A DNA stretch of 32,000 nt from assembly GCA_049293675.1 (NCBI GenBank), contig JBAQBR010000001.1:228078-260077 (forward strand), written 5' to 3'. Numbering within the stretch: position 1 is the first letter of the stretch; every line of letters starts with the position of its first letter. The notes beneath the pieces are model-generated. The model did not search any database. It saw only the letters and a program-made list of their open reading frames with translations, and was not told the DNA's origin. Shown one piece after another: positions 1-32,000 of the stretch. A program made the translations under genes and the position numbers. This DNA comes from Patescibacteria group bacterium. GTDB taxonomy: Bacteria; Patescibacteriota; Gracilibacteria; BD1-5; UBA2023.

Positions 1-382
1 TAAGTATTTGATTAGAAAAAATAAATCAACCAGCACTAATAATATTAGGATTAAGAATTTTCAAAAACTTTTCAACAACTAGAACCAATACTGAGCGCAG
101 ATATTCGAGTCGCTGCTGATTCTCTGGCAAAGTCTCAAGAAAATCATCTATCTCTTTGGATGTTGGAATTCATCAATTTGAAACAAGATTTACTAAATTA
201 GGAGTCCTAAGAATAGCTAAATCTAAGATCTCAGAAGCATCTTTTAATCAATCTGAATTATCTCACAAAATAATATCCTGAACTCTCCCAGAGGATTTTC
301 TATACAATTCCCGAAATAATTGTTGTCTTTTTAACTCAACAAGATTATTAATTTTATCAATGTCTAATTCCGGAAGATTCAT
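1..382 (-). CDS. hypothetical protein (C-terminus runs off the window edge)
   Basis: Minus-strand frame open from ATG at 382..380 to position 2 with no TAA/TAG. In-frame TGA at 263-265, 248-250, 173-175, 170-172 and 26-28 must be read as sense. Starts 10 nt downstream of the pepF stop. AT-rich, with no motif I recognise. Confidence 0.5.
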
Positions 383-392
383 AAAAATTGAA

Positions 393-2174
393 TTATATGA
401 GTTGTTCAAATTCCTCCACCATCTTCTCTACCTCTCTGAGTCCTGCACGATAGAATTCTGGAGAAGCGATATCGATATTGTACCTAGCGAGCAGGTCACG
501 TGGACGCTCACTGCCACCAGCACGGAGGATATCCTTGTAGTCTTCGACTGAGAGAGAACCATCTTGCACCTTGTTGTAGAGGGCAAATGTGAGGAGGTTC
601 CCGAATGCATACGCATAGCAGTAAAACGGCGTGTGGTAGATATGTGGTATCATCGACCATCCAGACTCATCCTCTGGCGCAATATCATGACGCACCACTC
701 CACCATAGAGCTTCTCTTGTTCTCATCTCCAGAGGACATTGAGATCCTTGTATGTGAGCTCTGCGCCTGTATGTATCTGTTCATGGACTTGTCGCTCGAA
801 TACGACATACTGCACCTGACGGAATATAGTAGCAAATATATCCCCGAGACGCTCATTGAGATATTCTTTGTATTCCTCTGTGGAGACGAGAGATTTTACC
901 TTCTCGCCTAATAGCATCTCAGAAAATATCGATGCAGTCTCAGCCATCGAGAGTGGTGAATCATAGACTGGAGCCTCTTGCACCTGAGAGAGGTGTCCAT
1001 GGATAGCATGTCCGAGCTCGTGTGAGATAGTCGAGACATCACGGAGTTTGCCTGTGAAGTTGAGGAGGACGAATGATTCTTCTCACTTGCGGTAGCTCGC
1101 ATAAGCACCACCTCGCTTCCCTGCACGAGGAAATACATCGATACGTTCTTCTTCGATCATGCGCTTAGAATAATCATAGAAGTCAGTATCAAAATCCTGC
1201 ATCACAGAGAGATGAAGATCATAAGCCTCTTCGAATGTGAAGTCCTTGTCTGACTGACCGAGTGGAGCACCAACGTCCCAGACGGAGAAGTCAGAGTCAA
1301 ATCCGAGCATCTTTGCCTTGGCTTGTAGGAATCTCTGATATATTGGGTAAGCCTTCTCTACTTCACTGAGGAGCATACCTACCACCTCATCATCCATCTC
1401 TTCAGAGATATTGCGCTGAGCCATGACATTGGCACCATAACCACGCATCTTGATCTCACTCGTCCAGTCCTTAACTATCGATGTATAGATATTCCCAAGG
1501 GATATCTGATTCTGCTTGGTGTTGTAGACGCGACGAAGTGAGCGATATGCTTCTTCTCGTATACCCCTATCAGTATGCTGACGATAACTACGAACCTCTT
1601 CTTCGGTGAGGTTCTTCTCCTCTCCTGCTATAGTCATAGTGAATTCATACGAACCTGTGAGCTCATCATGGAGACTCCCTGCGAGTCCGAGTGGACGAGA
1701 CTTGAGATTGAGGACATACTCTTCACGCTCACCGAGGATATACTTGATACCGTCAGCGGTCGAGAGGAGATCGTTCTTGAATCGTGCAAGTTCTGGAAGA
1801 GTCGACCACTCCATGATACGATCATATCCTATCTGTTTCCATGCTTGTGCAACGAAGAGGAGCTTGTTCGCAGCTTCGTTGTAGATATAGTCTACTTCCC
1901 CCATCTTCTTGGTCACAGTGAGATCCTGTGTATCGAGTGATGAACGGTAGAAGAGATAGTAACTCGGTGTTGCCATCCGATGAGACATCTCAGTATAGTC
2001 ATGATAGAATTCAAGAATCTGAGCAGATGAGTCAAAAGTCCCAAAAGTTTTCTCATACTTGTCTGCGAATCCGGTTGCAAGAGGAAGAATATTGGCAATA
2101 TCAGCATCGAGACGAGGATCACTGAGGTCAGAGTAAAAATATCGTGCTAGGTTCCAGTTGGTTGGGTAAGACAT
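393..2174 (-). CDS. pepF: oligoendopeptidase F (M3B metallopeptidase)
   Basis: Track ORFs 393..698, 723..983 and 1083..2174 share one frame. They are separated only by TGA (tca at 723-725 and 1083-1085). The joined 593-aa product carries the zinc motif ISHELGH near 1010-1030. The true stop is TAA at 393-395. Confidence 0.9.
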
Positions 2175-2192
2175 AGTGAGGGTTTTTAGTAT

Positions 2193-2660
2193 TTAGTTAA
2201 GAGTTCTGAGGGTAGTGAAGGCTTTTCGGACAATCATATCAAATCCTGGACGCCAATCAGTGTAGTTGTCTATATTAGATTCGCGAATCCATCGAGCCTC
2301 GGAGTGTTCCGTAAGGGTAATTTCTGGTTTTGTATCTATCTCGCGGACATAGCAGAGGAAGATAAATGCACGCTCAGAATATTGTGTTGTCATTTCATAT
2401 CGTTTTTCTGTATGAAAAAGTTGCGTATTGGACTCATCAAGAGAGATATCGATTCCGAGTTCTTCCTGAACTTCCCTACAGAGAGTATAGAGTGGAGGAT
2501 TCTTGCCATCTGATTTGCTTATCTTGCCTCCAGGGAGTTCTCGCCAGAGTGGAAGTCAGGGATATGATTCAACAACTGTCAAAATCTCATCACCACACTT
2601 GAGACAGAGCTTGGTGGCAACGTAGAATGTTTCTTCGTGTATGAGTGGATTATCAGACAT
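2193..2660 (-). CDS. NUDIX hydrolase
   Basis: ORFs 2193..2393 and 2556..2744 are in frame and joined through TGA at 2556-2558. Nudix-box-like GGKISKSDGKNPPLYTLCREVQEELGI. Start chosen at MSDNPLIHEE (ATG at 2660), because the upstream Met at 2744 would overlap a hairpin and T-run. Confidence 0.8.
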
Positions 2661-2757
2661 GTGAGAAGTATATAAAAAATCCCCTCTTTTAAAAGAGAAA
2701 GTTTGATTTTCTGAGATATATATTCCATTCTCAATACTCTTCACTCTATACTCTATA

Positions 2758-3360
2758 CTACTTCTTAAACTTCAGGAACTTGAGGAGTGCTTCGCGTGTA
2801 GCCATGATATCTCCCGTGGCTGTATGTGCATCATATCCTGTGATATGGAGTCTATCAGCGATACCTCCAGGCTTGGAGAGACTCGTACTCGTGAATGGAA
2901 GTGGTATCTTGTTGTATCTCGCGATGGCATTGGCCTGATTGGCTATCGACTTGGTATCGATGATATCATTGCCGAGCTTTTCATAGAGCTTCTCTCGACG
3001 CGCATTGGCAAAAACACTAGCAAGAAATGCTATATCTGCAGTAATATACTGTCCTATGATAATCGGCTTCTGTCCCCCACCGAAGTATGTCTCAAGAAAT
3101 CCATCCCAATAATCACAGAACTCTTCATAAGACTTACCCATCGCGATACGATCCAGTGTGAATCAGTTATACTCAAGTGAAGCGGGATCAATAATCACAT
3201 TGTCTGGTGGACAGAGATCCATATGGAAGTCCCCAATAATCTCAAAAAGGTCATCCATAACAATGGCGCCCACTTCAACAACACCATGTTGAAAAGGATT
3301 GAGCCCCGTCATCTCGAGATCGAGAACGAGATATGTTCACTTTTTCGGTTGATTTTCCAT
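2758..3360 (-). CDS. DEDDh-type 3'-5' exonuclease (DnaQ/Orn-like)
   Basis: N-terminus MENQPKKGTYLVLDLEMTGLNP (Exo I) is recovered by reading two in-frame TGAs upstream of track ORF 2758..3141. Exo III-like HTATGDIMATREAL near the C-terminus. 200 aa, TAG stop at 2758-2760. Confidence 0.8.
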
Positions 3361-3429
3361 CAGAAAATTATAATATATCGGAAATGCCGATAGAGCAATA
3401 TATTTATATTTGTTTTTTTGTCAAAAAAT

Positions 3430-4032
3430 ATGCCAAAACCGTTTATCATTCACGATCCGTACTTTGAAAAGGCGAAAAAACTCGGCTACCGTGCGCGGAG
3501 TGCATTCAAGCTCCTTGAAATACAAGAGAAGTTCAATATCATCAAACCTCGTATGAATGTTCTGGACGTTGCTGCAGCACCAGGAAGCTTTCTCCAGGTG
3601 ATTGCCAAGATAATCGGTCAAGAAGGAAAGGCTGTTTGAATTGATATACAGAAGATAGATCCCAACTTTGGCTTTCCCAATATCCACCTCCTACAAGAGA
3701 GTATCTTCGAATATGAGAAAATCCGTATATATCTCGATTCACTTGGAATCTGACAGTTCGATCTCATCACTTCAGATATTGCTCCATCAACAACTGGTAT
3801 GACAGGGGTAGATCAATATCGTTCCGTAGAACTCAATCTCGCAATCCTGGATGTAGCCAAGGCATTCCTGAAGAAGTGAGGCAATCTCGTACTGAAGGTA
3901 TTCGTCTGAGAAGATGTGAATGATCTGATGTTCCCACTCAAGGAGCACTTCAACAAGGTAAGTAGATTCAAGCCCAAGGCATGTCGTGATAGGAGCTTCG
4001 AGGAATACTTCATCTGTATATGAAAAAAATAG
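3430..4032 (+). CDS. rlmE: 23S rRNA 2'-O-ribose (U2552) methyltransferase RlmE/FtsJ
   Basis: DPYFEKAKKLGYRARSAFKLLEI, VLDVAAAPGSFLQV, DLITSDIAP and GGNLVLKVF. Continues through TGA at 3637-3639 plus four more TGAs to TAG at 4030-4032. ATG at 3430 is preferred over the TTG at 3418 used by the track. Confidence 0.9.
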
Positions 4033-4055
4033 TCCGATATATCGGACTATTTTTT
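4031..4055. terminator. bidirectional rho-independent terminator shared by rlmE and the DUF177 gene
   Basis: Perfect hairpin AGTCCGATATATCGGACT flanked by an A-run (4023-4030) and a T-run (4050-4055). It lies between two convergent stop codons. Confidence 0.8.
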
Positions 4056-4422
4056 AGAATGAGTAACACGCCATAACAATCTCTTCGCGAATAACAGGAG
4101 CAAGGTCAATCGTCATAGAGCGGACATCGAGTTGTTTTATATCATCATCGTCTGTTTCTGGATCGATATTTTTTTTCCATGTACGTTCGAAGTTACCGAT
4201 ATTCACGGTATGTATTTTTTCTTCGTAGAGGACTGTGGTTTTGAGGTTCTCAAATATTACACTCACACCCTCATCGAGAGCAATAATCTGGAGTGTGAAC
4301 TCAAGTGGCTTCTTGAATGATATATCTTCCATGTATCCATCAAAAACTTCTCCAGAAAAAGAAAACTTCTTCGAGTCTCAAGTATATGATGATAATATAT
4401 CTCCAACCGGAATAGTAAACAT
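4054..4422 (-). CDS. DUF177/YceD-family protein (large-subunit rRNA accumulation protein-like)
   Basis: Track ORF 4054..4332 extends upstream through TGA at 4378-4380 to ATG at 4422 (MFTIPVGDILSSYTGDSKKFSFSGEVF...). The acidic ETDDDDIKQLD segment and the overall length are typical of DUF177. Confidence 0.7.
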
Positions 4423-4449
4423 ACCTAATATCTAATAACTAATATCAAC

Positions 4450-5007
4450 CTAAGCATCCATCGCTTTCATAGCATCGAGAGCTACGGTGTTTCCTGTTTT
4501 CTCGAAGAGTATGCGAGCCTCATCTTCGAGCCCTGCAGCCATGAGCGCCACTCAGAGATCATTCACTATCATCATCTCACCAGGTGCAAGGTGATGAGCA
4601 CGGCGAAGGAGCGAGAGTCCACGAGGGATTGCCCCCTTCATCACATATGCCCAACCGAGATTGCGGATAACTTCAGCGTTGTTGGGCATGAGTGTATTGG
4701 CACGAGTGAGCACCTCGATAGCATGATCAAAATCCCCTCTCGCAACAGCAATATATCACTCGAGATATGTCCCTGTTCCACTCTCAGGATGGAGTGTACG
4801 AGCATAACTAATCACTTCTTCTGCCTTCTCAAGATTGTTCTCGAAGAGATAGATATCAGCAAGTTCCTCGTAGAGACGATAGTCATCAGTATACTTAGTC
4901 AGTGCTTGCAATGCTGCATCACGCGCCTCGATATACTTGTTCTCTTGCTTAAGGAGTTCGATAGATTCGATAACTGCCTCAACCGGATGTGAAAAAGATG
5001 AATTCAT
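4450..5007 (-). CDS. tetratricopeptide (TPR) repeat protein
   Basis: ORF 4756..5007 is joined through TGA at 4756-4758 and one more TGA to TAG at 4450-4452 (186 codons). Repeated 34-aa TPR-like units, e.g. YRLYEELADIYLFENNLEKAEEVISYA and GDFDHAIEVLTRANTLMPNNAEVIRNLGWAY. Confidence 0.75.
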
Positions 5008-5087
5008 AGCTCGAATTATAAGTTTTTTGGTAGGAAAATCAAGGGAAAGGAAAAAATTGACAGATTAATTTTATTATGGAAAATAAC

Positions 5088-5114
5088 TTGACAAAGTTTA
5101 CTAAATGCTATAAT
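5088..5114 (+). promoter_or_regulatory. sigma-70-like promoter for the 5138 gene
   Basis: Perfect TTGACA (5088-5093) and TGcTATAAT (extended -10, 5106-5114). The spacer is only 15 nt. It lies 24 nt upstream of the ATG at 5138. Confidence 0.5.
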
Positions 5115-5137
5115 AGATGGAAATTAACTATATTTAT

Positions 5138-5689
5138 ATGACTAATCATCCAAGTGTACCTGAACAATCTCCCTGAGATACAGAACAAACTTATAAGATT
5201 CAGTTTCAGTATCTAGATTGAAGTTGAGATAGTTGAAGGTGACACTCTATAGTCTGAGTACAAACAAAAAATACTAAGAAGATAGTACATTATCTTGAAT
5301 GGGATAGTAGACGTATCATAGATAGTTCTAGCAATATTGAGCCTGTTGAAAAAGGGCTAGGTGATTCTTGTGTAAATTGTGGCTATCATAGACCTTCTTG
5401 GGTTGGGGAAATATTTGAAAAAACGACAAAGTGACTTACTTGTCTCCAGTTGGATAGGCCTGATCATCATGCTCAACGTACTCTCCCATCTGATGATGGT
5501 AAGACTGTAGTGAAGGGTTGTATATGTCCTCATCATACTGAACAATGAAGCCAAGAATGGTATGAAAAGGTTATAGATACACAAAAATCTTTTCTCGTTG
5601 TTACAGATTGAGAAATCGTATATGATTATTCAGATTTTTCAGTTACTTATGGAAAGTGAGGAGTACCGAAAATCACTCCCAAATACTAA
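5138..5689 (+). CDS. hypothetical Cys/His-rich protein, visible only under TGA=Gly
   Basis: 183-codon frame from ATG 5138 to TAA 5687-5689 with 9 in-frame TGA and no TAA/TAG. Contains CVNCGYH, a further Cys (GLTCLQ) and CICPHH. Has its own promoter-like element and a strong downstream terminator. Nothing is called on this strand in the standard-code track. Confidence 0.6.
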
Positions 5690-5696
5690 TATCATC

Positions 5697-5728
5697 AAAA
5701 AACCTCAGACCTATGCCTGAGGTTTTTT
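5697..5728. terminator. bidirectional rho-independent terminator
   Basis: AAAAAACCTCAG-acctatgc-CTGAGGTTTTTT. An A-run and a T-run flank an 8-bp stem. The hairpin overlaps the last codons and the TAG stop (5711-5713) of rlmN. Confidence 0.8.
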
Positions 5729-6799
5729 GATAGTCTTGCCAGTTTCGGTTGCGAGTGACTTGCCTTCTTCCTTGAGTGCGAGCTGACCACAAGCAGCATC
5801 GATATCATCACCCATCGTATGACGAACGGTTGATGGTATGCCATAGTTATCGAGTGTATCTTGGAATTTTTTGATGATCATTTTTGATGTTGGGAGGAAT
5901 CCATCAGAGTCACTTCCCTCTCCTGGATTGTACGGGATAAAGTTTACATGTGCGAGTCGCCCCTTGAGAAGTTCACCAAGTTCACGAGCGTACTCAAGTC
6001 TATCAGTGACTCAATTGATCATGATGTATTCGTAGAATACCCGCTTATTCGTGATTGCAACATACTCATCGATACTCGCCATGAGGACATCGATAGGATA
6101 TGTCTCCTCAACAGGCATGATACGTTTGCGGGCTTCATCGTTGGGCGCATGAAGAGATACCGCAAGTGATACCTGTGGGAAGTCGCGAGCGAAGTCCACA
6201 ATACGTGGGGCAATACCACACGTCGAGACAGTGATACGACGATTCGAGAGGTCGAGCTTCTTCTGGCTACAAGCTATATTGATAGATTTTTTTACTTGTT
6301 CGTAGTTGAGCAGTGGCTCACCCATACCCATATAGACGATATTGCGGAGCTTGCGGTCTTCGCGGGCAAGATGATGCACTGCCCACATAATCTGATCGAT
6401 GATCTCAGAGAACTCGAGATTGCGGATGAGTCCGAGCTTCCCTGTAGCACAGAAGCTACACGCCATAGGACAACCTGCCTGAGAACTCACACAGAGTGTA
6501 TTGCGACCTGAGAGATGACGCATGATAACAGCCTCGATGAGCTTGTCATCATGTGTACGGAAGAGGAACTTGGTTGTCTGTCACTCTGAATCAGTCTTCT
6601 CAGAGTGGAGTGTGAGGGAGGTATACGAGCAATTCTCTACAAGGAGTTCACGGATGTCCTTCGGAAGTGTCTCAATAAGGTCAAAATCCGTAATCAGATT
6701 CTTGTATATAGCATTCTCTATCTGGGCATAGCGAAACTTCTTGTGTCCATGGGACTCAAGGAGAGTAATAATCTGAGATTCGTCGTGTATGGAAAACAT
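5711..6799 (-). CDS. rlmN: 23S rRNA/tRNA adenine-C2 methyltransferase RlmN (radical SAM)
   Basis: Three in-frame pieces (6581..6799, 6011..6523, 5711..6010) are joined by TGA at 6581-6583 and 6011-6013. Radical-SAM motif GCPMACSFCATG, plus GMGEPLLN and C-terminal DIDAACGQL. 362 aa. Confidence 0.9.
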
Positions 6800-6811
6800 A
6801 AATAATGATAA

Positions 6812-7180: not shown

Positions 7181-7250
7181 AGTAACTGCTTACATTCAAA
7201 AATGAAATAAAATTTTCAAAAACAAGAAGTTCGTGGTTTTTTAGAATTTC

Positions 7251-7679
7251 CTAGAGTCCGAGGAGGATGGCTGCTGTCGTAAAACCAATGATACCGCCTG
7301 CAAGTGCCTCAATTGGAGTATGTCCAAGAGTCTCATTGAGTTCATTGCCATCATCTGGAGTGAGCTCATTGAGTGCCTTGGCATGGAGTCATGCCTGGTA
7401 TCGGACATTCATCGCATCATAGATAATGATGATAGAGAACACAAGACATATCATGAACTCATCACTCCATGGACCGTTCTTGATGCCCATAGAGGTAGCA
7501 AGTGCGATAACAAACGTTGAGTGAGCAGAAGGCATACCCCCACTTCCAAGCATATTAGAAAAACTAAATTTTCCTTTCGTAGCATGAACGACCCCCTTTA
7601 CAACTATGGCAACAAAAAGTGCCGTAAAAGGAATAAGGAGTGTATATGAATACAGGTATGTCTGGAATTGTTCAAACAT
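7251..7679 (-). CDS. divergent PAP2 (DUF212/YuiD-like) membrane protein
   Basis: GSGGMPSAHSTFVIALATS and YDAMNVRYQA-(TGA)-LHAKALNE are typical of this family. Start set at MFEQFQ (ATG at 7679) so that it does not overlap greA. TAG stop at 7251-7253. Confidence 0.7.
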
Positions 7680-7689
7680 AGAGAGAGGA

Positions 7690-8178
7690 TTATCGAGACT
7701 CGACAATGACGTATTCTTTTTTCCCAGCAGGAGAGACAACTGAGATAGTGTCTCCAACATTCTTTCCAACTATTGCCTTACCAAGTGGTGACTCATTACT
7801 AATCTTCCCATCGAGGATAGATGCTTCCTGGGAACCAACGATAATATAAGTGATTTTATCTTTTGATGTGACTTCTTCTACTGTTACAGTAGCACCAACA
7901 TTGATACCTGCTTTACGCTTTTTTCCTGACTTCTCTTCTTCGATAATCTCATAATTTCCTGGCTTGAGGAGCTCTTCGAGTTCTGCGATACGGAGCTCAA
8001 CTTGAGCCTGATCATCACGAGCTTCCTGATATTCAGCATTTTCAGAGAGGTCTCCATAAGAGATAGCTTCTTTGAGCTTATTGGCAATCTCTACACGTTT
8101 TTCTTCACGGAGAACACGGAGTTCTTCTTGGAGTTCTGCGAGACCTGAAGAGGTAAGAAGAATTTTTTTATCAGACAT
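7690..8178 (-). CDS. greA: transcription elongation factor GreA
   Basis: Intact 162-aa ORF with no TGA. Signature GDLSENAEYQEARDDQ, an N-terminal coiled coil and a C-terminal FKBP-like domain. Confidence 0.95.
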   Translation of the reverse strand: MSDKKILLTSSGLAELQEELRVLREEKRVEIANKLKEAISYGDLSENAEYQEARDDQAQVELRIAELEELLKPGNYEIIEEEKSGKKRKAGINVGATVTVEEVTSKDKITYIIVGSQEASILDGKISNESPLGKAIVGKNVGDTISVVSPAGKKEYVIVESR

Positions 8179-8187
8179 GGGTAAGAG

Positions 8188-8880: not shown

Positions 8881-8888
8881 AAATACAA

Positions 8889-8912: not shown

Positions 8913-8942
8913 CTAAAATAACAACTCATAACTCAAACCACT

Positions 8943-9497
8943 TTACTTCTTTTTCGAGACACTCGCGAATTCGATCTCAACTGGAGTATCACGACCAAGG
9001 AGATTGATCATGATCTTCACAAGACCCTTTTGGGTATTGATCTCGATAACCTTTCCTTCACTTCATTCGAATGGACCATTTTTGACCGTAACATAGTCCC
9101 CTGCTTGCATATCTGTCTTGTACTCTTCACTCTTCTCAGTGAGGATACCTTTGAGTTGCTCGAGTTCAGCACCACTTACAGGAACTGGAACCGTACCTGC
9201 ACCAAGAAAACCAGTTACATTCGGAGTATTACGAACAATATACCATGATTCATTAGTTACAATCATGCGAACAAGGATATATCCAGGGAAGATATTCTTT
9301 TGTTTTTTTACTTTTACACCTCCAGCACGTATGGAGATAGAGTCATGTGTTGGGACGAATACATCGAGAAGGTAGTTCTCCAGACCGAATGCCTCACGAC
9401 GCTGCATGAGTGATTCTTTTACATTGCCTTCTGTACCAGAGATAACGCGGATAACATACCATTCTCATTCTGTTTTTGGAGAGAGAAGATCGAACAT
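8943..9497 (-). CDS. nusG: transcription termination/antitermination factor NusG
   Basis: MFDLLSPKTE-(TGA)-EWYVIRVISGTEGNVKESL N-terminal NGN domain. KOW motif GDYVTVKNGPFE-(TGA at 9063-9065)-SEGKVIEI. 184 aa, directly downstream of secE. Confidence 0.9.
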
Positions 9498-9524: not shown

Positions 9525-9863
9525 TTATTCAGCGATAGCACCAGTGAGGTCAATTGTGATTCCAGTGTTAGTAGAGCCAGTATTGGTTGCACCTGATTGT
9601 GAGAGCTTCTGTTCAAGAGCCTCTGTGATATCATCGAGTTCACCCTGAGTAACTGTATCAGATACAGGAGATACGATATCATGAGGGAAAAGTCCACGAA
9701 CTGCAACGAGTCCAGACTGGATAAGAAAACCGAGGGCCATAAGAAGAACTGTCACAACAACAATAACAACTATATTGTACATCATGTATTTTTTGGTCTC
9801 ATTGGGAGTAGGCCATACAACATGCTCGAGTTCTGCTTGCGCATCACGAAGGAATTTGAACAT
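9525..9863 (-). CDS. secE: preprotein translocase subunit SecE with an extended C-terminal tail
   Basis: ELEHVVWPTPNETKKY followed by one TM helix (IVVIVVVTVLLMALGFLIQ). Conserved position immediately upstream of nusG. About 50 extra C-terminal residues. Confidence 0.85.
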   Translation of the reverse strand: MFKFLRDAQAELEHVVWPTPNETKKYMMYNIVVIVVVTVLLMALGFLIQSGLVAVRGLFPHDIVSPVSDTVTQGELDDITEALEQKLSQSGATNTGSTNTGITIDLTGAIAE

Positions 9864-9930
9864 AAAAGGAAAAGATAAGGTTTTACGAACGGAATTATAT
9901 GAAAAAAATGGAGAGAGTCAAAGCATTTTA

Positions 9931-9950
9931 AAATCCCCTAATGGGGACTT
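9931..9950 (-). terminator. second (back-up) terminator hairpin downstream of the giant gene
   Basis: TCCCC-taat-GGGGA. On the minus strand it is followed by ATTTTAAAAT. Confidence 0.45.
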
Positions 9951-9992
9951 AATGTTGGAGTGATTATAGCGAAAGATTGTGAAAGTCAATAT

Positions 9993-10017
9993 AAAATCCC
10001 GATTGCTCGGGATTTTA
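9993..10017. terminator. rho-independent terminator immediately after the giant gene
   Basis: AAAATCCCGattgcTCGGGATTTT, a symmetric hairpin with flanking A and T runs. It begins 3 nt after the stop codon at 10020-10022. Confidence 0.8.
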
Positions 10018-10019
10018 TA

Positions 10020-14910: not shown

Positions 14911-15168
14911 TTACTGAACTATCTCTGTGAATCTCTGAACTTGTTTTCAAACATGCTCAACAATATCATACCAAACTGATAATGGTCGTGTGACAAGCGC
15001 ATATCCATGTGCCCAACTCTCAGGTGGAGCATCATAAAGTGGTCGATACACAACCATATCTTCGTGTGTCTCAGAGTGAACAGCAATGTCAATAACCTCA
15101 TACGTGTGAAGTTCTGTTCCATCGGATTTGTAGTGGCGCCAATGGCTACCAGGAGTAGGTTTTTGCAT
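14911..15168 (-). CDS. DUF1653-family small protein
   Basis: HWRHYKSDGTELHTYEVIDIAVHSETHEDMVVYRPLY matches the DUF1653 pattern. The track stop at 14947-14949 is TGA, and read-through adds 12 residues (G plus KQVQRFTEIVQ) before TAA at 14911-14913. Confidence 0.7.
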
Positions 15169-17262: not shown

Positions 17263-18441
17263 TTACTTTTTTCGAGTATTGTATGCCAATATGAGGAGTC
17301 CGATGAGGACAGTGAGGCTCACTCCCCCTATCATGAGGACACTCGGATATGGTACACTCAGAAGCGGGAAGAATATATTTTTGGACTGGAGGAATCCCTG
17401 TAAGAATCAGATGATATATCACTGTCCTACGAAGCACACAAGTATATAGCTCAGTATTCCTGCGGATATGAGGAGTATTGGTTCGAGGAAGACGAGGATA
17501 TATCGACTCATATTCTCTATCTTGTACTGTCTGATGAGTGAGAAGACGTATTCCTTCTCTCTGAAGTATCCACTCAAGAGCAAGAACAAGAATCCATAGA
17601 GTATAGCGATGATGCTCACCATGACAGATACGAGTATCCGTGCAATAGTCTCAAGTGTACGCTTCTGTTCGACTATTGTATCAGCATCGAACTTCAGCGT
17701 ATAGCCACTATATCGAGACTCTATCTCCGCGCGCGATGAGGCATCCATCATGTATGCAACGACTTTGTAGGGAGGACTCTGTGTGTATCAGAGTTTTCTC
17801 ATCTCTTGATCTGCTGTATCATATGGGATAACCACCCCGAATCAAGGATAGTCACTATCGACATGTGTGATCTTGGAGGTGTAGGTATTCTCTGACTTCT
17901 CAGGAAGAGAGAAGAGCTTCGACGCACCAAAAACAAGTGTCACTCCCCTACCGACTATATCTGATTCAGAAAATACAGGGAAAAAAGCATGCGATCAGGC
18001 GAATTCGAGATTGTAATACTTGAGCATCTGAGATGATATACCGATTCCATCAGTTCCTCCAGTTGACTCACGTATACTAAAAGTCGGAACATCGATATCG
18101 AGAGAAAACTTGAAGAGATCGAACTTTCAGAGGACAGATATATCGAGGAATCTGAACTCGCGATAGCGTTCGATATCAGTATCTTTTTTTATCTCTTCTA
18201 TAACCGTAGAGGATATTCATCACTTCTCTCTATCAAAAAGTTGAAATATATTGGATCCAGCAGTAAGTGAAAATCTCCTCTCATCTATACCGTCTAGGGT
18301 ATAATAAGCAATACCTGATGCTATGTTGATATAGAGAAAATAAAACACAAATCATATGCAGGCACTCACAAAAGTAGCAAGCACAATACTCACAGTACGA
18401 GTCCAAGAAGATGAGAGATTACGCAAGAAAAAAGAAAACAT
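17263..18441 (-). CDS. ABC transporter permease, FtsX/MacB-like (1 TM, extracytoplasmic domain, 3 TM)
   Basis: Frame checked codon by codon from ATG at 18441 to TAA at 17263-17265, with about 10 in-frame TGAs. N-terminal TM VSIVLATFVSACIGFVFYFLYI, a roughly 220-aa soluble domain, then three C-terminal TM helices. The start lies 1 nt after the ATPase stop. Confidence 0.75.
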
Positions 18442-18442
18442 A

Positions 18443-19123
18443 TTATAGTCTAATAAGAGATCATCCGTCAATTCGATACTCTCGAGCATCTGAGAGGATG
18501 AATCCTCTATCATGCGTCACCACCCAGAGAGTTGCATGATGCTCTCGGATATAAGTAGAGAGGAACTCAAGTGCTATAGAGTAGAGTCTCTCGTCGAGAT
18601 GTGAGAATGGCTCATCGAGGATGAGTATATCTGGTGCTGACACTAGCATGCGGATGAGAGCGATACGTTCTCTCTCTCCACTCGAGAGTCTCTCAATCGG
18701 TGTATCGAGGAGGCTTCACACTTCAAGTGTCTCTATACACGTATCGAATACTTTCTCAGAGAATCTATAATCTCAGAAGAGTGAAGGAAACATGATATTT
18801 TCTCGTGCAGTGCTCGACTCGAAAAATACAGAATCTGTAAAAAACACTCAGATATGCTCTCTATAAAAAGCACCAAATCAAACATCTCGTGTAGATATCT
18901 CCTCATATCCTACACTTCCAGAAGATGGCACATCGATGCCTGTGAGTATACGCAGAAAAGTAGACTTCCCCGAACCAGAAGGTCATCTGAGTATCGATAT
19001 ATCTCCTCGATGTATATCGAGAGTAACATGAGAGAGTATATCCTGCCCTGTATATGTATGCGATACATCTTGTACGCGGATGAGTGGTTTTATTCTATTC
19101 TGAGAGGATGTATTATTATTCAT
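18443..19123 (-). CDS. ABC transporter ATP-binding protein
   Basis: Walker A LR-(TGA at 18983-18985)-PSGSGKST, signature LSSGERERIAL, Walker B ILILDEPFSHLD and H-loop VVTHD. 226 aa. Confidence 0.9.
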
Positions 19124-20481: not shown

Positions 20482-20862
20482 TTACTTAACTTCAACTGTA
20501 GCACCAGCCTCAGAGAGTTGAGTCTTGATCTTTTCAGCTTCATCCTTCTTAACACCCTTCTTGATGTCACCACCATTGTCAGCGAGAGCCTTAGCCTCAG
20601 CAAGACCGAGACCAGTAATCTCACGGATAACCTTGATCACTGCAATCTTTTGAGCACCAGCAGAAGTCATAACAACATCGAATGATGTCTTTTCCTCGTC
20701 AGCAGCACCACCAGCAGCACCACCAGCCATAACAGCAACTGGAGCAGCAGCAGAAACTCCGAACTTCTCCTCCATAGCAGAGACGAGGTCAGCGAGTTCT
20801 ACGATAGTAAGAGTTTCAACGAGATCCATGATCTGTTGTGCGTTCTTTGAGAGATCAGCCAT
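20482..20862 (-). CDS. rplL: 50S ribosomal protein L7/L12
   Basis: [36 protein letters not shown], an Ala/Gly hinge, and [24 protein letters not shown]. Start set at ATG 20862 rather than the upstream Met in the track. No TGA codons. Confidence 0.95.
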
Positions 20863-20950
20863 AATAAAAATAGATAGAAAATAAATATACTTGATCGAGA
20901 TTTTCACCTCGCACCTATCCCGATATACGGGACAGGATGTGAGACGAAAA

Positions 20951-21816: not shown

Positions 21817-21822
21817 GAGCCG

Positions 21823-23783: not shown

Positions 23784-23855
23784 AATGACCCAATAGAGAA
23801 AAATTAAGGATATTTCTCTTGCATAATCATAAAAATACGTAAAATACACAACACT

Positions 23856-24845: not shown

Positions 24846-24859
24846 AAACTATAACAATT

Positions 24860-25402
24860 ATGATTATTACACTTGGTGGACATCACGGCGCAGGAAAGAG
24901 TACTCTCTGAAAAAAACTTGCGGAACATTTTGAGTTCAAGAGATACTCAACTTGAGATTTTATGCGGGAACTCGCAATGGAGAGATGAATATCCTTGATT
25001 GATCTCGGACGCGAAGCTGAATCAGATGGTTGAGTCATCGATACTATACTCGACGACAGGCAAAAAAATCTCTGAAAGATAGAAGATAATTTTATTATTG
25101 ATGGACGCCTTGCTTTTTATTTTATTCCTCATGGAAAAAGAATTTTTCTTACCGTTGAGCCACTAGAGGCGGCAAGAAGAATATTCCATGATGAATCACG
25201 ATTGTGAGTAGAAACCCATGAAACAATAGAGCATGCAGCAGAAAATATCGTCGTACGTAGAAATAGTGAAGATGAACGCTATATGAAGTATTATGGTGTA
25301 CATATATACGATATGAGCCTCTATGATATAGTTGTTGACACAACAGATAGAACTCCAGAACAAGTGTTCGAAGAAGTATTAGCAAGACTCAACAATGACT
25401 AG
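24860..25402 (+). CDS. cytidylate kinase-like P-loop nucleotide kinase
   Basis: MIITLGGHHGAGKSTL-(TGA)-KKLAE P-loop, with 7 in-frame TGAs. 180 codons ending at TAG 25400-25402. Similar in length and layout to archaeal-type CMP kinases. Absent from the standard-code track. Confidence 0.65.
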
Positions 25403-26216
25403 TTCATATTCTCAAAAACATATCCTCACAGAGCCTCTCGGAAACAATGCCTTTGCTTGGCAAGAACGAGAGGTTTTGTATGGTCACTCACCTACTCTCA
25501 TCATTCCGAGTCTCATAGACGGAACTATCGAGGACGTGATGCTGTGAGACGATGTAGTATTCGAAGAGTGAGAGGATGGACAGATACGATCATGTACAGG
25601 ACTTCGAAACTTTGTACGACTCCGTCATTGCGACGTAGGAAGCAATCCAGCTAATAAAAAAGGTATTCCTAATATTGTTTCTGGATCGCTTCGTACCTCG
25701 CGATGACAGATACAGGCAGAGATACTTATCTTCGACAACCACAACCATGCACTCTACTTCTGGCTCGAAGCAGTGAGACGATGAGTTGTTGAGACAGGAT
25801 TCGAGCTCATACATATCGACGAGCACTCAGATCTCTGGGATAACTCAAATAAGCTCGATAGAGATAGAGCAATACAAGACGAGCAATACTCTTGGGATTT
25901 TGCCAATCTAGAGTGCAATGTTGGAAACTATATACGGCCAGCACTCAGGGCTTGACTCATCTCAACTATGATACGTATAGAGAACGAATACCAGATAGAT
26001 GAGTATATGGACTACACTCCATCAGAGAATAGTATTCTCAATATCGATATCGATATATTCGCCCCCGAACTCGACCATATTCCTGAGTGAAAAAAGATAA
26101 AAATCATCAAAAACTTGCTTGGGAAGGTAAAATATGTCACAATAGCAACATCACCTTACTTTATAGAGCAATGAAAGGCTATTGAGAAATTACATCAAAT
26201 TCTAAAACAAGAATAA
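25395..26216 (+). CDS. UPF0489-family protein
   Basis: 273-codon frame with about 11 TGAs. ILIFDNHNHALYFW and LIHIDEHSDLW match my recollection of the UPF0489 (C5orf22-like) signature. The ATG at 25395 overlaps the kinase stop (ATGACTAG). Confidence 0.55.
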
Positions 26217-26560
26217 AACCACTCTATTCTCCAGATGAAGTAAGTCTCATAGAATCATGGATTGAGGATTGATTAAGAATATTAAAAGATACAGGAAAAA
26301 GTGTAAATTATGAAGAGATGTGTCAGAGAATACTAGATACGATTCCTGGAAACTTTCTTATAATTGAATTTGAGAATCTAATTATCTGATGGAAGAGAAA
26401 ATTTAGTGAGAAGTATTCAAAAAGAGATAGAAGTAATGCATTCAAGGACTTTATCAAAGAATTACACACAAAATGATTAATAAAGAATGAAGTGCACTGA
26501 CTAACTGGTAGTTTCTCAGAAAAGATAACAAGTATAATACAAAAAAACTCAACTAATTAG
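26171..26560 (+). CDS. hypothetical protein (AT-rich, start uncertain)
   Basis: 129-codon frame from ATG 26171 to TAG 26558-26560 with 5 TGAs. It overlaps the preceding gene by 46 nt in another frame, and its stop codon lies inside the terminator stem. No recognisable motif. Confidence 0.4.
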
Positions 26561-26577
26561 TTGAGTTTTTTATTTTT
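26541..26577. terminator. bidirectional terminator between convergent small genes
   Basis: AAAAAAACTCAAC-taatta-GTTGAGTTTTTTATTTTT. Both convergent reading frames end inside the hairpin. Confidence 0.75.
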
Positions 26578-26772
26578 ACGTCGCTGCATTCATTCATCAA
26601 GTTTTTTGATATGATCGTGATGCTGATGATCATGTGGCGGATGGTCTGAGGTTGCATGGGGAGATGTTTTTACTCATCAATCCCCTTTCTCTGAACTCGT
26701 ACTCGCAAAAACACCAGTTACAGGGATAGAGCAGATAGTAGCGATGATGATGATCCTATAGGAACGAAACAT
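26557..26772 (-). CDS. small secreted His-rich protein
   Basis: ATG at 26772. Signal-like N-terminus MFRSYRIIIIATICSIPVTGVFAS, then HATSDHPPHDHQHHDH and a basic tail. 3 in-frame TGAs, 71 aa. Confidence 0.45.
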
Positions 26773-26885
26773 AATATGTGTTTTTATATGTATTTATAAG
26801 CATATTTTAGCATATATTAATATATTGACAAGTATAATTTTTATTTTTATATGAAAAACTCGACATTTTAGAGTTTTTTGCTATC

Positions 26886-27350
26886 ATGCGTGGCATGAAA
26901 GTAGTTCCCAATAAGACCATCATCGAGAACAAAAAAGCCCTCTTTGACTATGAAGTTATAGAGGAATTTGAAGCAGGTATTGTCCTCTATGGCCCGGAAG
27001 TCAAGAGTCTCAGGGCTGGTCAAGCCAATCTCAAGTGATCATATGTCACCCTCCACTCAGGTCGTCCAGTCCTTGTCGGATGCCATATATCAGAGTACAA
27101 GTCCAATACTGGAACCAAGTTCGAACCAAAACGAGAACGCAATCTCCTGATATCACAGAAGGAGATATCCAGACTCCAACAGAAAACCAAAGAAATGTGA
27201 GCAACCATAGTCCCTGTCGAGATATATACCAAGGGCAATCTCTTCAAGGTACGCATCGCCCTCGCCAAGTGAAGAAGAAAGTGGGAGAAGAAGAATCTCC
27301 TCAAAGAACGTGACCTCGACCGCGAAGTCGCAAGAAAATTTAGATTTTAG
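26886..27350 (+). CDS. smpB: SsrA-binding protein SmpB
   Basis: [36 protein letters not shown]-(TGA)-SYV and a C-terminal basic tail [16 protein letters not shown]. 154 aa with 3 TGAs. Confidence 0.9.
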
Positions 27351-27378
27351 AAATCATTAAGTTATCTTTTTAATTTTT

Positions 27379-27510
27379 GCTTCTTTATTTTCACGAGCTT
27401 TTAGAATCTGTCAGCGAAATTTTCATAAAAAATACAACGTCTCTGAATTTTGTATTTTTAGAAAATAAGCTGATATCAGATTCAAAAGTGAGTGAACGAA
27501 AAGAAGAACC
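27379..27510 (+). other. nested imperfect inverted repeat / candidate structured RNA downstream of smpB
   Basis: The outer arms 27379-27415 and 27469-27510 pair in blocks (TCAGC/GCTGA, GAATCTG/CAGATTC, CTTTT/AAAAG, TTCTT/AAGAA). The inner hairpin is AAAATACAA-12 nt-TTGTATTTT (27428-27458). No ORF in any frame under either code. Confidence 0.4.
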
Positions 27511-27553
27511 TTTTGTTACTTTTCAGTTATGAAAAGTAAATATACACCATCTT

Positions 27554-28873
27554 ATGCTCAACGAACGTTTTACATCCTACTTTCATGATACATTCTTCCT
27601 GTGAAAAGAAGAAGAGTTTCAGTCTTTTTTATCAGCAATAGAACAGCCGATTCCTCGTACCATCCGTATCAAGGAGGGAAAAGAGAAACAAGTACAAGAA
27701 AGTCTCGAAAAAGATGGTTGGATACTTACCGCAACCAATATCCCAAGAGTCTACAGCATGGATAGGAGAGAGGATTTTGATCCACTTGAGCGTCGTCTCG
27801 GATTTTCTCTTGATCATCTTCTTGGGAATTTTTATATCCAAGAGCTTGCTGCTGCTACTCCTGTAGATATACTTGCGGATAGCACTATCCAGACCGATAA
27901 CTTCCTCATACTCGATATGGCATCGAGTCCTGGAGGCAAGACAACTCAGCTTGCAGAATACTATCCCAATTCTTTTATCATAGCGAACGAACCAACCCGT
28001 GAACGCATACCACAACTCCTTCAGAACCTCGAACGCATGGAAACACCGAACGTTGGTGTGACACTCTATCCCGGACAGTATTGGAAACACCTTCCAGAGA
28101 CTTTTGATCGTATACTTCTCGATGCTCCATGTAGTGGAGAATGAACCCTCTACAAGTGAACCGATGCTGTGAAACACTGGCATATCAAAAACATCAAAGA
28201 TATCTCTCGACTCCAGACCAAGCTCCTTGATGCAGCACTTCATAGCCTCAAGGTTGGTGGTGAGATGATATATTCAACTTGTTCACTCAATCTCCTAGAA
28301 GATGAGTGAGTTGTAGAAGCAATGTATGAAAAGTATGGAAATTCATTTGAGATACTATTTCAGAAAAAGTTCTGGCCACATATCGACGGAACTGGGGGGT
28401 TTTTTATCACCAAGATACGCAAGACTCAGAGCCTAGAACAACAGGAAAAAAGTTGACTCAGATGAGGAAAAAATGACAAACTCAAGGTATTCCGCGGGGA
28501 TACGTATCCATGGGAGTTCCAAGATGGAGTCAAGCTCTATGAGCACGACAAGAAGATACTCGCCGTAAAAAATAGTCCTCATGGACTCATTGACACCTAC
28601 TTCATGCGATTCTGAGAACAGATAGGTAATATCGAGAACTGACGGTTCGAGCCAAGCATATGGTCAAATCGCTATATAGATACTACAGGACTCGAGACCT
28701 ACAATATACAGGATGAACTCATACTTGATAGTTACCTCAGAGGCAATCCTCTAATACATGAGTGAAAAGATGCCTATATACTCATCTCATATAACTGAGA
28801 ACAGATAGGTCTCGAATACAGAAAAGATAATACAATACAAAATACATTCCCAAGAGACTGGCGTAGAAAATAA
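27554..28873 (+). CDS. rRNA cytosine-C5 methyltransferase, RsmB/RsmF (NOL1/NOP2/Sun) family
   Basis: 439 codons with about 12 TGAs. DMASSPGGKTTQLAE (SAM binding), DAPCSGE-(TGA at 28142-28144)-T and YSTCSLN catalytic-Cys motifs. The C-terminal roughly 150 aa resembles the RsmF extension. Confidence 0.85.
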
Positions 28874-28874
28874 G

Positions 28875-28900
28875 AAAACCCTCCATTTTGGAGGGTTTTT
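28875..28900. terminator. bidirectional rho-independent terminator
   Basis: AAAACCCTCCA-tt-TGGAGGGTTTTT, between convergent stops at 28873 and 28914. Confidence 0.8.
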
Positions 28901-28913
28901 CTGAGGATACTGA

Positions 28914-29834: not shown

Positions 29835-29844
29835 AGAGTATGAT

Positions 29845-29870
29845 TAAAAAATACCTACGAATTGTAGGTA
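29845..29870 (-). terminator. hairpin plus T-run between tsaD and the DsbA-like gene
   Basis: On the minus strand: TACCTAC-aattc-GTAGGTA followed by TTTTTTAATC, only about 10 nt upstream of the DsbA-like ATG. Confidence 0.5.
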
Positions 29871-29938
29871 CAATAAGGCCTAAATCAAGATGAAAACAAA
29901 AAACTCTTTGACAAAGCCATGAAATCCAAACTAACTTC

Positions 29939-30925
29939 TTACTTTGAGTCTCTGATATACTCATAATATGCCCGAATGCCTACCATGGCAGCATTGTCCA
30001 TGGAGTAGAGTATCTTTTTTGGTGCAACAAAGTTCCAACCACGATTCATAGCTTCCGATGTAAGCGTATCCTTGAGTCGAGTATTGGCGCTCACTCCACC
30101 TGCAAGAGCAATATTGGTGATTCTGTATTGTTCTGTTGCTTGTATGAGCTTGGTCGCGAGCACATCTGTAATTGCTACTTCTGTAGCATATGCAATCCTT
30201 TCTATATTTGATTGTGTCATCTCATCAAGGGAATCAATATATCGCTTGATAGCGGATTTCATCCCAGAGAATGAGAAATCAAGCTCCTGACCCGAGAGTC
30301 AACGTGGGAAGAGCTTAGCTGCAATTTGTTTTTCCTCAGTTGAAGCCCTACTTGCGAACTCCAACGAGAGTCGTGCAATCTTGGTTCCACCTGGAAATCC
30401 GAGCCCAAGCATCTTCGCAACCTTATCAAAACACTCTCAGGCAGCATCATCACGAGTCTGTGATATCATCTCGAATTCAAACATACTCTTCCAGAGATAT
30501 ATCTCTGTATGACCTCAGGAGACTGTGAGTATCATAGTAGGAAACACTAGCTCATCAGCCTCACGTTCGAGGAAGTTGGCGAACATATGAGACTCTATGT
30601 GATCTATCCAGAATATTGGCCTATCCAGAGAGAGGGCAAGGGTATCTGCAACAGTTGTACCAGTGAGGAGTGATGGTGCAAGTCCTGGTCTCGCTGTACA
30701 GGCTATGACGTCGATATCTGCGAGAGTAATACCCGAATCCTTGAGAACATCATCAATGCATGGAAATATCGCATTTGCATGGCTACGTGCAGCAACCTCA
30801 GGGACAACGCCACCTGTTGTATCATGTTCGAGTTGAGTTCGCGTAGACATAGCAATGAGTTCCCTGTCTCTCATGAGAGCAACAGAGGTATCATCACAGG
30901 ATGTTTCGAAGGCGAGGAGGTACAA
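29939..30925 (-). CDS. tsaD: tRNA N6-adenosine threonylcarbamoyltransferase TsaD
   Basis: LAFETSCDDTSVAL, LTVS-(TGA at 30515-30517)-GHTE, FPGG and ALAGGVSAN. Three track ORFs are joined by TGAs. There is no ATG, so the start is TTG at 30925. 328 aa. Confidence 0.9.
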
Positions 30926-30953
30926 GTTAGGTATTGGATGTTAGGATTTAGAG
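30926..30953. repeat. 14-nt direct repeat GTTAGGNATT(N4) x2 upstream of tsaD
   Basis: GTTAGGTATTGGAT GTTAGGATTTAGAG, immediately upstream of the tsaD TTG start. Confidence 0.7.
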
Positions 30954-31010
30954 ATGAGATTTGTTGCTAGAAGATATACAAAAACTGAGAAAGTTCAAGA
31001 TATTGGAAAG

Positions 31011-32000
31011 TTATATGATTCCATGATCCCTGAGAGACTCTATTTGTTTGAGATTACAGACCGAATTCAACTCTCATTCAGTGAGATTTTTTATTCCATC
31101 TACACTTCCTGCAAGTTTTAGGAGTTTTTTGCGTGTGACTGGTCAGATTCATGGTATCTCTTCAAGAATATTCTTTTTCATACTTTTCATACGTGCAGTT
31201 TTATTGGCCGTGATAGAGAATCTATGTGATTCGTCTCGGGCCTTCTGGAGTACCATAAGTTCTGGTGTTCCTTTTTCAAAGAGTATTGGATTTTTCTCTC
31301 CAGGAAGGAATATCTCTTCTTCCCTCTTGGCGATAGAACATATCTGTGGAATTTTATCAATAGCTCATATCTCTTCATATTGGAATGCTGGAGATCAATT
31401 GTCTTGATTACTAGAATTATGGATACTTCCCTCGCCAGAATTACGAGAATACCAGATTCCCTCTTTGACCCCTGATACAGCACTAGAAAGTTGTCACTTT
31501 CCTCAATCGATGATGATAAGATGAGGGAAGTTATCCTGTTCAACTCACTCAAGTGTCCGACGATACATCACTTCTCGATGCGAAGCAAAGTCATCTATAT
31601 CACCATCTGTAAGTGTTTTTATCTTGTATTTCTTGTACCGAGTGGTGTCTGGCTTGCCATCGACAATACAGACCCGACTCGCATAAGTGAAGTGACCGTC
31701 AGTATGTGATATATCATAACATTCAAATATTATCTCCCCCTTAGCCGGGACATCATAGCCGAGTGTTGTAAGAACATTTTTCATATGCTCACGAGTGAGT
31801 GTTTTGTTTTCGAGAGAAGCAAGTTCTTTTTTATAGGCATATTCACGAACCTGCGTGAGCGTGAAGTCTATGATTTCTTTCTTTGGTCAGATTCTTGGGA
31901 TCTCTACTTTTATTTTTCTTGTCATAAGAAAATCAACAAAAGACTCATCTGCAATACTATTTTGAAGCAATAACAGGTCAGGTAAGTCTCCTGATTGCTC
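31011..32000 (-). CDS. uvrC: excinuclease ABC subunit C (N-terminus beyond the window)
   Basis: ECYDISH, IIID-(TGA 31503)-GK-(TGA 31494)-QL matching IIDGGKGQL, SIAKREEEIFLPG, LQKARDESHRFSI, and the HhH motif IP-(TGA)-I-(TGA)-PVTRKKLL. TAA stop at 31011-31013. Confidence 0.9.

Follow-up and report, generated by a model that had tools for sequence, protein, structure and literature searches.

What does TGA mean in the genome of a Patescibacteria group bacterium (GenBank assembly GCA_049293675.1)? The question is raised by a stretch of 32,000 nucleotides from contig JBAQBR010000001.1 (positions 228,078 to 260,077), which was analysed as a whole and is referred to below as the window. A first-pass annotation, made from the letters alone, had proposed that TGA is read as glycine throughout. 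The evidence assembled here makes it almost certain, at the level of sequence comparison, that the window belongs to a Gracilibacteria genome of ~1.12 Mb (GC 41%) that uses NCBI translation table 25, with UGA as an ordinary glycine codon and only UAA and UAG as stops. No further codon appears to have changed its meaning.

Glycine positions and open reading frames

Nine window proteins were translated with TGA as X, a masking that avoids alignment bias, and were aligned by tblastn to orthologous loci of other genomes. These loci were split by the presence or absence of TGA in the aligned region, and columns were counted where at least three TGA-free orthologues were available. Across the 48 resulting TGA columns the TGA-free orthologues carry glycine at 517 of 853 residues (60.6%), close to the 66.6% found at the genome's own GGN columns, and tryptophan at only 2 of 853 (0.2%). 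Column log-odds at TGA are +66.5 bits for glycine, compared with -90.6 for alanine, the next best residue, and -155.6 for tryptophan. Glycine is the residue in all 19 TGA columns with a conservation of 90% or more, and none of the 48 has a tryptophan majority. The first-pass annotation had also held that tryptophan positions use TGG, which agrees with the 60% tryptophan at TGG columns. Among recoded Gracilibacteria relatives, a window TGA stands opposite GGN 166 times and a window GGN opposite TGA 304 times (470 in total), and TGA stands opposite TGG 3 times.

The same pattern is seen at individual motifs. Seven TGA codons had been singled out earlier as invariant glycines, and all seven were found in the proposed frame and strand (18983, 31503, 31494 and 30515 on the minus strand; 22194, 28142 and 3637 on the plus strand). 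In the ABC transporter ATPase, TGA at 18983-18985 (column 47) is the first glycine of the Walker A motif G-PSGSGKST (Gly 5/5), and TGA column 92 of the same protein is likewise Gly 5/5. Five TGA codons of UvrC fall on invariant glycine columns: 31887 (Gly 4/4), the pair 31503 and 31494 in IIDGGKGQ, and the pair 31149 and 31143 in PGIGP (Gly 5/5 each); the solved structures 2nrt and 3c65 have glycine at both motifs. In TsaD the codon at 30515-30517 in VS-G-GHT and that at 30437-30439 are both invariant glycine columns (5/5), and relatives carry TGA 9 times and GGN 21 times at the first, TGA 6 times and GGN 24 times at the second. The penicillin-binding protein has glycine opposite the TGA of its GGSTIT motif (22194) in 23 of 26 orthologues and opposite those at 22968 and 23511 in 21 and 26 of 26. 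For RsmF, the TGA at 28142-28144 in DAPCSGEG faces glycine in 8 of 10 orthologues as well as in structure 2frx and others, and Gracilibacteria relatives have TGA 12 times and GGN 17 times at this codon. Solved-structure alignments place glycine opposite X in GGSTIT, IIDGGKGQ, PGIGP and CSGEG. RlmE contributes two Gly 5/5 columns (3637-3639 and 3907-3909) and SmpB three invariant ones (27036, 27198 and 27270; 4/4 each). In alanyl-tRNA synthetase (AlaRS) the codons at 16780-16782, 15808-15810 and 15646-15648 face glycine in 32/34, 23/24 aligned (10 gaps) and 34/34 members of the first orthologue set, and all three columns remain at least 90% glycine with 80 further orthologues. A related-locus search with AlaRS returned standard-code AlaRS only, from many phyla. 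Few columns could be added from RsmF, whose orthologues were found in only 10 of 50 genomes across the phylum, and the cytidylate-kinase-like protein had no match in five standard-code relatives.

The reading frames open accordingly when TGA is sense. The share of the window covered by open reading frames (ORFs) of 100 aa or more is 47% under table 11, rises to 86% once TGA is sense, and is 58-63% when TAG or TAA is made sense instead; across the three contigs of the genome the corresponding values are 44-52%, 82-91% and 56-67%. As the TAG- and TAA-sense controls stay far below the TGA-sense coverage, the opening of frames is not a mere effect of removing a stop codon. The re-prediction that the first-pass annotation had suggested separates TGA sense from table 11 (0.82-0.91 versus 0.44-0.52) but does not distinguish table 4 from table 25, under which the frames are equally open. 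The further claim of the first-pass annotation that TAA and TAG are still stops is borne out by the low coverage (0.56-0.67) obtained when either is made sense. Genome-wide, ORF ends are TAA in 503 cases and TAG in 264, a split that is set by the frame definition and so is no test of the stop set. Of the 767 ORFs with 150 aa or more, 734 contain TGA, with a mean of 7.3 per ORF and 5596 in total; TGA has a frequency of 18.0 per 1000 codons and accounts for 25.8% of those for glycine. The window is fragmented under table 11 into ORFs mostly of 80-250 aa; table 25 yields long frames whose translations give full-length Pfam matches (PepF, RlmE, RlmN, NusG, SecE, AlaRS, UvrC and others).

Decoding, termination and distribution in the lineage

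The window contains no tRNA by ARAGORN and no Rfam family, and evidence on decoding was for this reason drawn from the rest of the genome, where ARAGORN finds 38 tRNAs, including tRNA-Gly(GCC), tRNA-Gly(UCC), tRNA-Trp(CCA) and tRNA-Arg(UCG). The UCA-anticodon tRNA-Gly for which a search had been proposed has a clear candidate in a 79-nt tRNA(UCA) at C2:80398-80476, which scores 44.2 bits against the Rfam tRNA model and carries the glycine identity set G1:C72, C2:G71, G3:C70 and U73. These elements are the criteria by which a tRNA(UCA) is called a glycine acceptor in Shulgina & Eddy 2021 (PMC8629427). Its acceptor end (GCGGGGG...CCCCGC-U-CCA) resembles that of both tRNA-Gly genes, unlike that of tRNA-Trp(CCA), which has G73 and a different acceptor stem. 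The acceptor stem of the tRNA(UCA) is 7 bp long and its variable region 4 nt, and in the 10-nt D-loop an A occupies the G18 position. The tRNA is kept in 22 of 22 genomes of the order at 86-100% identity. Across these 22 sequences G1, C2 and G3 are invariant together with sequence positions C73, G74 and C75 and the discriminator U, and the cloverleaf shows 7 pairs with compensatory changes, a result matched by 0 of 500 shuffles. In three relatives (L249, L251 and L259) the tRNA(UCA) lies 5-25 nt from tRNA-Gly(GCC), an arrangement compatible with its having arisen from a duplicated tRNA-Gly.

An extra nucleotide in the tRNA(UCA) permits a 6-bp anticodon stem, with C29-G47 and U30-G46 beyond the usual stem. 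Both pairs never vary, so the sequence data speak neither for nor against them. tRNA-Sec, the other decoder of UGA, has a six-pair stem as well. We regard it as a speculative and rather unlikely possibility that the UGA-decoding tRNA-Gly(UCA) of this order has a specialised architecture, in which the lengthened stem would tune efficient reading of UGA and keep U34 off UGG. The idea is the converse of a report that tRNA-Trp(CCA) with its anticodon stem cut to 4 bp reads UGA (PMC13092985). It is limited by the tRNA(UCA) of another recoded family (f91, genome G185), which is also able to form a sixth pair (G26-C44). Our literature search found no paper describing the 79-nt length, the possible sixth pair or the A at the G18 position.

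The synthetase and termination factors are consistent with glycine at UGA. The genome encodes one dimeric-type glycyl-tRNA synthetase (GlyRS) at C2:260683-262092. Its single class-I release factor is release factor 1 (RF1), which is above the cut-off on both RF1 models (461.7 bits, cut-off 400), reaches only 255.9 bits on the release factor 2 (RF2) model (cut-off 370) and has the PVT motif. RF2, whose loss had been put forward as a check, was not found in the three-piece assembly. We propose that GlyRS would charge tRNA(UCA) with glycine even though anticodon position 36 is A instead of C. With RF2 lost, UGA would have no competitor in the ribosomal A site and would be read through as glycine everywhere, and RF1 alone would terminate at UAA and UAG. 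The transfer-messenger RNA (tmRNA) was also examined, as it had seemed to be missing despite the presence of SmpB; this was rejected, since the Rfam model RF00023 finds it at C1:86720-87164 on the minus strand (75.9 bits, cut-off 47) where ARAGORN had missed it, and there is no anomaly.

The distribution of these traits was followed in 150 genomes across the phylum and in 200 genomes of the same class, with RF2 called at an E-value of at most 1e-90. Among the 150 phylum genomes, no AlaRS outside the genome itself has an in-frame TGA. Within the class sample such codons in AlaRS are confined to f1 (its own family), f82 (of the same order), f91 and f102, and all four of these families lack RF2. 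In its own order RF2 is found in 0/7 genomes of f1, 0/13 of f82 and 0/1 of f83, so that in-frame TGA and RF2 loss are common to the order; f83 lacks RF2 and has the tRNA(UCA), and the aligned part of its AlaRS is free of TGA. The other RF2-less lineages are f91 (0/22) and f102 (0/2), and RF2 is also missing from two single incomplete genomes. It is present in f2 (22/22), f6 (22/22), f90 (21/21), f4 (6/6), f104 (9/9) and others, comprising nearly all families without in-frame TGA. The 79-nt tRNA(UCA) was recovered by blastn at full length, with anticodon UCA each time, in all 21 sampled genomes of the order (86-100% identity) and nowhere else. A genome of f91 (G185, L267 at G185:C4:88057-88133) has a tRNA(UCA) of its own, with a GCG... 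acceptor stem and U73, an unrelated body and no encoded CCA. A covariance-model search gave no tRNA(UCA) among the matches for G158 and G173 (both f91) or for f102, whose best match was tRNA-Gly(UCC). In G173 a separate tRNA-like gene (L273, G173:C3:30235-30310) has a glycine-type start (GCGGGT...) and a 6-nt anticodon loop (ATTTAT) and is labelled 'tRNA-?(Lys|Stop)(tt)' by ARAGORN; this is an unusual tRNA or else a pseudogene. The earlier placement of the fragment in the clade of Gracilibacteria and Absconditabacteria agrees with its nearest named relatives, Candidatus Gracilibacteria metagenome-assembled genomes at 47-74% identity, which were found with the TGA-free DsbA-like protein of the window.

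Three other accounts of the in-frame TGA codons were weighed against table 25. Table 4, in which TGA encodes tryptophan as in Mycoplasmatales and some insect endosymbionts, opens the frames as well as table 25 does and is chosen by automatic pipelines, to the extent that the Logan collection holds TGA=W versions of the window's SmpB and NusG. It is already refuted by the column counts (tryptophan 2/853, -155.6 bits), and both the codon exchanges among relatives (TGG 3 times versus GGN 470 times) and the tRNAs speak against it: the tRNA(UCA) has U73 and the GCG/CGC acceptor end of the two tRNA-Gly, and the only tRNA-Trp is CCA with G73. We consider this account exceedingly improbable. The same can be said of the view that the TGAs are true stops or selenocysteine (Sec) codons, reflecting pseudogenes, sequencing errors, selenocysteine insertion or context-dependent read-through. 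Annotation under table 11 does give many short ORFs, and ARAGORN labels the tRNA 'SeC', but it so names any UCA tRNA. The presence of TGA in 734 of 767 long ORFs, at a mean of 7.3 per ORF, is far beyond selenocysteine or decay; the frames are open with full-length Pfam matches, and TGA positions are conserved between genomes as glycine or as TGA/GGN. tRNA-Sec is marked by a long variable arm, an acceptor stem of 8-9 bp and G73, and Sec TGAs are rare and lie at Cys/Sec positions. The tRNA(UCA) does not share this architecture (7-bp acceptor stem, 4-nt variable region, U73) and fits the general Rfam tRNA model.

It is also very unlikely that UGA has a dual meaning, mostly glycine yet terminating some genes through context or an unrecognised factor. 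This possibility draws on the ORF definition, which forces every end to TAA or TAG. However, neither the genome nor any of the 21 relatives sampled from the order yielded an RF2, TGA-extended products match orthologues end to end (AlaRS 1-662, TsaD 1-322, RlmE 3-204), and a coverage of 0.82-0.91 leaves scant room for over-extended genes.

Several points weigh against the assignment of UGA to glycine under table 25. Approximately 44% of TGA columns have no glycine majority in distant orthologues; these are variable positions, and the same holds for 27% of the columns at the genome's own GGN codons. Support is at the sequence level, and the charging of tRNA(UCA) by GlyRS is suggested by its identity elements. 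U34 could in principle also wobble-read UGG. Finally, the assembly is in three pieces and was scored 60.5% complete, so that the absence of RF2 is to be read as 'not found'; a simple assembly gap is unlikely, because RF2 is also absent from 21 of 21 sampled relatives of the order, whose completeness is 89-100%.

Gene content of the window

Read with table 25, the window holds 30 credible genes, 26 of which contain in-frame TGA (123 codons in total), which fits the first-pass estimate of at least 25 of 34. The four TGA-free genes are GreA, L10, L7/L12 and the DsbA-like protein. The matched products include proteins of translation and RNA modification (AlaRS, RlmE, RlmN, RsmF, TsaD, SmpB, L10 and L7/L12), of transcription and secretion (GreA, NusG and SecE), and of the envelope and transport (class A penicillin-binding protein, ABC ATPase, Lnb_N protein, DsbA-like protein and DUF212). 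The other matches are PepF, NUDIX hydrolase, DnaQ-like exonuclease, TPR, DUF1653, the cytidylate-kinase-like protein, UPF0489 and UvrC. The genes are as follows, with strand in parentheses.

393..2174 (-): oligoendopeptidase F (peptidase M3), 593 aa, 2 TGA; PF01432 (E 5e-47), residues 197-577
2193..2930 (-): NUDIX hydrolase, 245 aa, 2 TGA; PF00293
2758..3687 (-): RNase T/DnaQ-like exonuclease, longest ORF 309 aa, 3 TGA; PF00929, residues 120-298
3418..4032 (+): RlmE/FtsJ rRNA methyltransferase, 204 aa, 5 TGA; PF01728 (E 4.5e-48)
4054..4422 (-): hypothetical protein, 122 aa, 1 TGA; table-25 ORF without Pfam match
4450..5007 (-): TPR-repeat protein, 185 aa, 2 TGA; TPR families
5711..6799 (-): RlmN radical-SAM rRNA/tRNA methyltransferase, 362 aa, 2 TGA; PF04055 and PF21016
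6812..7180 (-): hypothetical protein, 122 aa, 2 TGA; table-25 ORF
7251..7769 (-): DUF212 (divergent PAP2) membrane protein, 172 aa, 1 TGA; PF02681 (E 3e-38)
7690..8178 (-): GreA, 162 aa, 0 TGA; PF03449 and PF01272
8212..8880 (-): hypothetical membrane-anchored protein, 222 aa, 3 TGA; table-25 ORF
8943..9497 (-): NusG, 184 aa, 2 TGA; PF02357 and KOW
9525..9989 (-): SecE, ORF of 154 aa, 1 TGA; PF00584
10020..14789 (-): repeat-rich surface-fibre-like protein, 1589 aa, 10 TGA; one unbroken table-25 frame
14911..15168 (-): DUF1653 protein, 85 aa, 1 TGA; PF07866
15178..17208 (-): alanyl-tRNA synthetase, ORF of 676 aa, 6 TGA; PF01411 (E 1e-133)
17263..18570 (-): predicted multi-pass membrane protein adjoining the ABC ATPase, ORF of 435 aa, 10 TGA; table-25 ORF without Pfam match
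18443..19123 (-): ABC transporter ATPase, 226 aa, 6 TGA; PF00005
19133..20092 (-): Lnb_N-domain protein, 319 aa, 5 TGA; PF13387 (E 5e-33)
20482..20907 (-): ribosomal protein L7/L12, 0 TGA; PF00542 and PF16320
20951..21607 (-): ribosomal protein L10, 218 aa, 0 TGA; PF00466
21843..23783 (+): class A penicillin-binding protein (GT51 and transpeptidase), 646 aa, 19 TGA; PF00912 and PF00905
23856..24845 (+): hypothetical membrane protein, 329 aa, 1 TGA; table-25 ORF
24860..25402 (+): cytidylate-kinase-like P-loop kinase, 180 aa, 6 TGA; PF13189 and PF02224
25395..26216 (+): UPF0489 protein, 273 aa, 7 TGA; PF12640
26886..27350 (+): SmpB, 154 aa, 3 TGA; PF01668 (E 5e-49)
27377..28873 (+): RsmF/YebU-type 16S rRNA m5C methyltransferase, 498 aa, 11 TGA; PF01189
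28914..29834 (-): DsbA/thioredoxin-like secreted protein, 306 aa, 0 TGA; PF13462 and PF01323
29939..30925 (-): TsaD (t6A synthesis), 328 aa, 3 TGA; PF00814 (E 8e-72)
31011..32000 (-): UvrC, C-terminal 329 codons of a gene that extends past the window, 9 TGA; PF08459 and HhH

The real start of the exonuclease is probably further downstream than that of its longest ORF, and the true start of the membrane protein at 17263..18570 is probably later than drawn, because the ORF overlaps the ATPase. Under table 11 the fibre-like gene falls into pieces of at most 284 aa. Table-25 ORFs in opposite or other frames shadow it at 9979-11103 (+, 374 aa), 11067-12122 (+, 351 aa) and 12879-14531 (+, 550 aa, 20 TGA); these look like by-products of repeat composition and not genes.

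Three doubtful ORFs lie beyond the 30 genes, at 2-409, 5117-5689 and 26087-26560. The ORF at 5117-5689 (+, 190 aa) is located in the interval that separates rlmN from the TPR gene, and TGA makes up 10 of its 18 'glycine' codons. Neither Pfam nor a comparison with 25 relatives, all from the order and two of them from the same genus, gave a match, and the ORF was treated as doubtful and excluded from the gene count. Probably it is no gene, and ~700 bp there are then left without one. The gap upstream of smpB (26216-26886) has low GC (36% for 26001-28000). It may hold a gene of ~120 aa formed by the tail of ORF 26087-26560, and a 71-aa ORF at 26557-26772 (-) begins like a signal peptide and includes a His-rich stretch (HPPHDHQHHDH); an Rfam scan of 26100-26950 at a weak threshold gave only chance-level matches and no family. 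At the other end, window positions 1-392 together with C1:227938-228077 form a stretch of ~530 bp that separates pepF from a downstream phosphomannomutase-like gene; all ORFs there are TGA-rich (6 TGA versus 2 GGN) and the DNA is probably non-coding.

Known codes and public annotation

The table-25 code itself is already known, and this is one more Gracilibacteria genome confirmed to use it. The UGA=Gly code of Candidate Division SR1 and Gracilibacteria was reportedly described by Campbell and colleagues in PNAS in 2013, and a Nature paper of the same year by Rinke and colleagues is said to be among those listed for table 25. Proteomic support for UGA=Gly in a BD1-5 bacterium is given by Hanke et al. 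2014 (PMC4032931), and table 25 is included in the Codetta survey of Shulgina & Eddy 2021 (PMC8629427). The present genome shares with these systems UGA as glycine, UAA and UAG as stops, a tRNA(UCA) with G1:C72, C2:G71, G3:C70 and U73, the loss of RF2 with retention of RF1, a small genome of the candidate phyla radiation and relatives named as Gracilibacteria. It does not differ from them in code; the tRNA(UCA) of this order is distinctive in its 79 nt, its possible sixth anticodon-stem pair and its A for G18. Table 4, as used by Mycoplasmatales, Entomoplasmatales and insect endosymbionts, likewise combines a sense UGA with RF2 loss and a small genome. The present genome differs from it in reading glycine instead of tryptophan, in a decoder of tRNA-Gly type where table 4 has tRNA-Trp(UCA), and in a GC content (41%) that is not extremely low.

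An extended code with UGA=Gly and CGA/CGG=Trp has been predicted for Absconditabacteria (SR1), and CGG=Trp for some Gracilibacteria (PMC8629427). This genome has UGA as glycine and the class-level clade in common with them; here, however, CGA and CGG are arginine codons. Their assignment to tryptophan was rejected, as the tryptophan fraction is 0.000 at CGA (25 columns) and 0.014 at CGG (7 columns), a small sample. Invariant arginine columns occur at CGA/CGG codons in the penicillin-binding protein (position 500, 22/25), UvrC (255, 5/5), SmpB (83, 4/4) and RlmE (27, 5/5), and in relatives these codons swap with CGT, AGA and CGC. The arginine signal over the CGA columns is weak (R 0.15, K 0.28), the positions being variable on inspection. 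Neither codon is rare (CGA 8.4 and CGG 2.6 per 1000 codons), and tRNA-Arg(UCG) is present. In a per-codon table of ~3000 aligned codons the standard residue ranks highest for every other sense codon, with the exception of TTA (n=8), which is ambiguous between Ile and Leu.

The effect of the code on public annotations is already apparent. The warning of the first-pass annotation that standard-code gene calls would be defective is illustrated by the NusG held at NCBI for this genome (129 aa, on the 1,118,814-bp contig), which begins downstream of the first TGA, stops precisely at the second and lacks the KOW domain. By exact look-up, the TGA=Trp versions of the window's SmpB and NusG are present in Logan, and a collection of 15 billion proteins lacks the products that table 25 gives for SmpB, NusG and the kinase. 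The TGA=Trp products in Logan put tryptophan into Walker A and other glycine motifs, and such wrong-code products distort homology searches and structure prediction. Wrong-code gene calling may also lie behind the completeness score of 60.5%, compared with 89-100% for relatives of the order. Any downstream reading of the window requires table 25.

In biological terms the result is a confirmation of a known code, and its value is practical. The class-wide pattern illustrates how the reassignment is spread, with RF2 missing in each family where in-frame TGA was seen and one conserved tRNA(UCA) running through the order.

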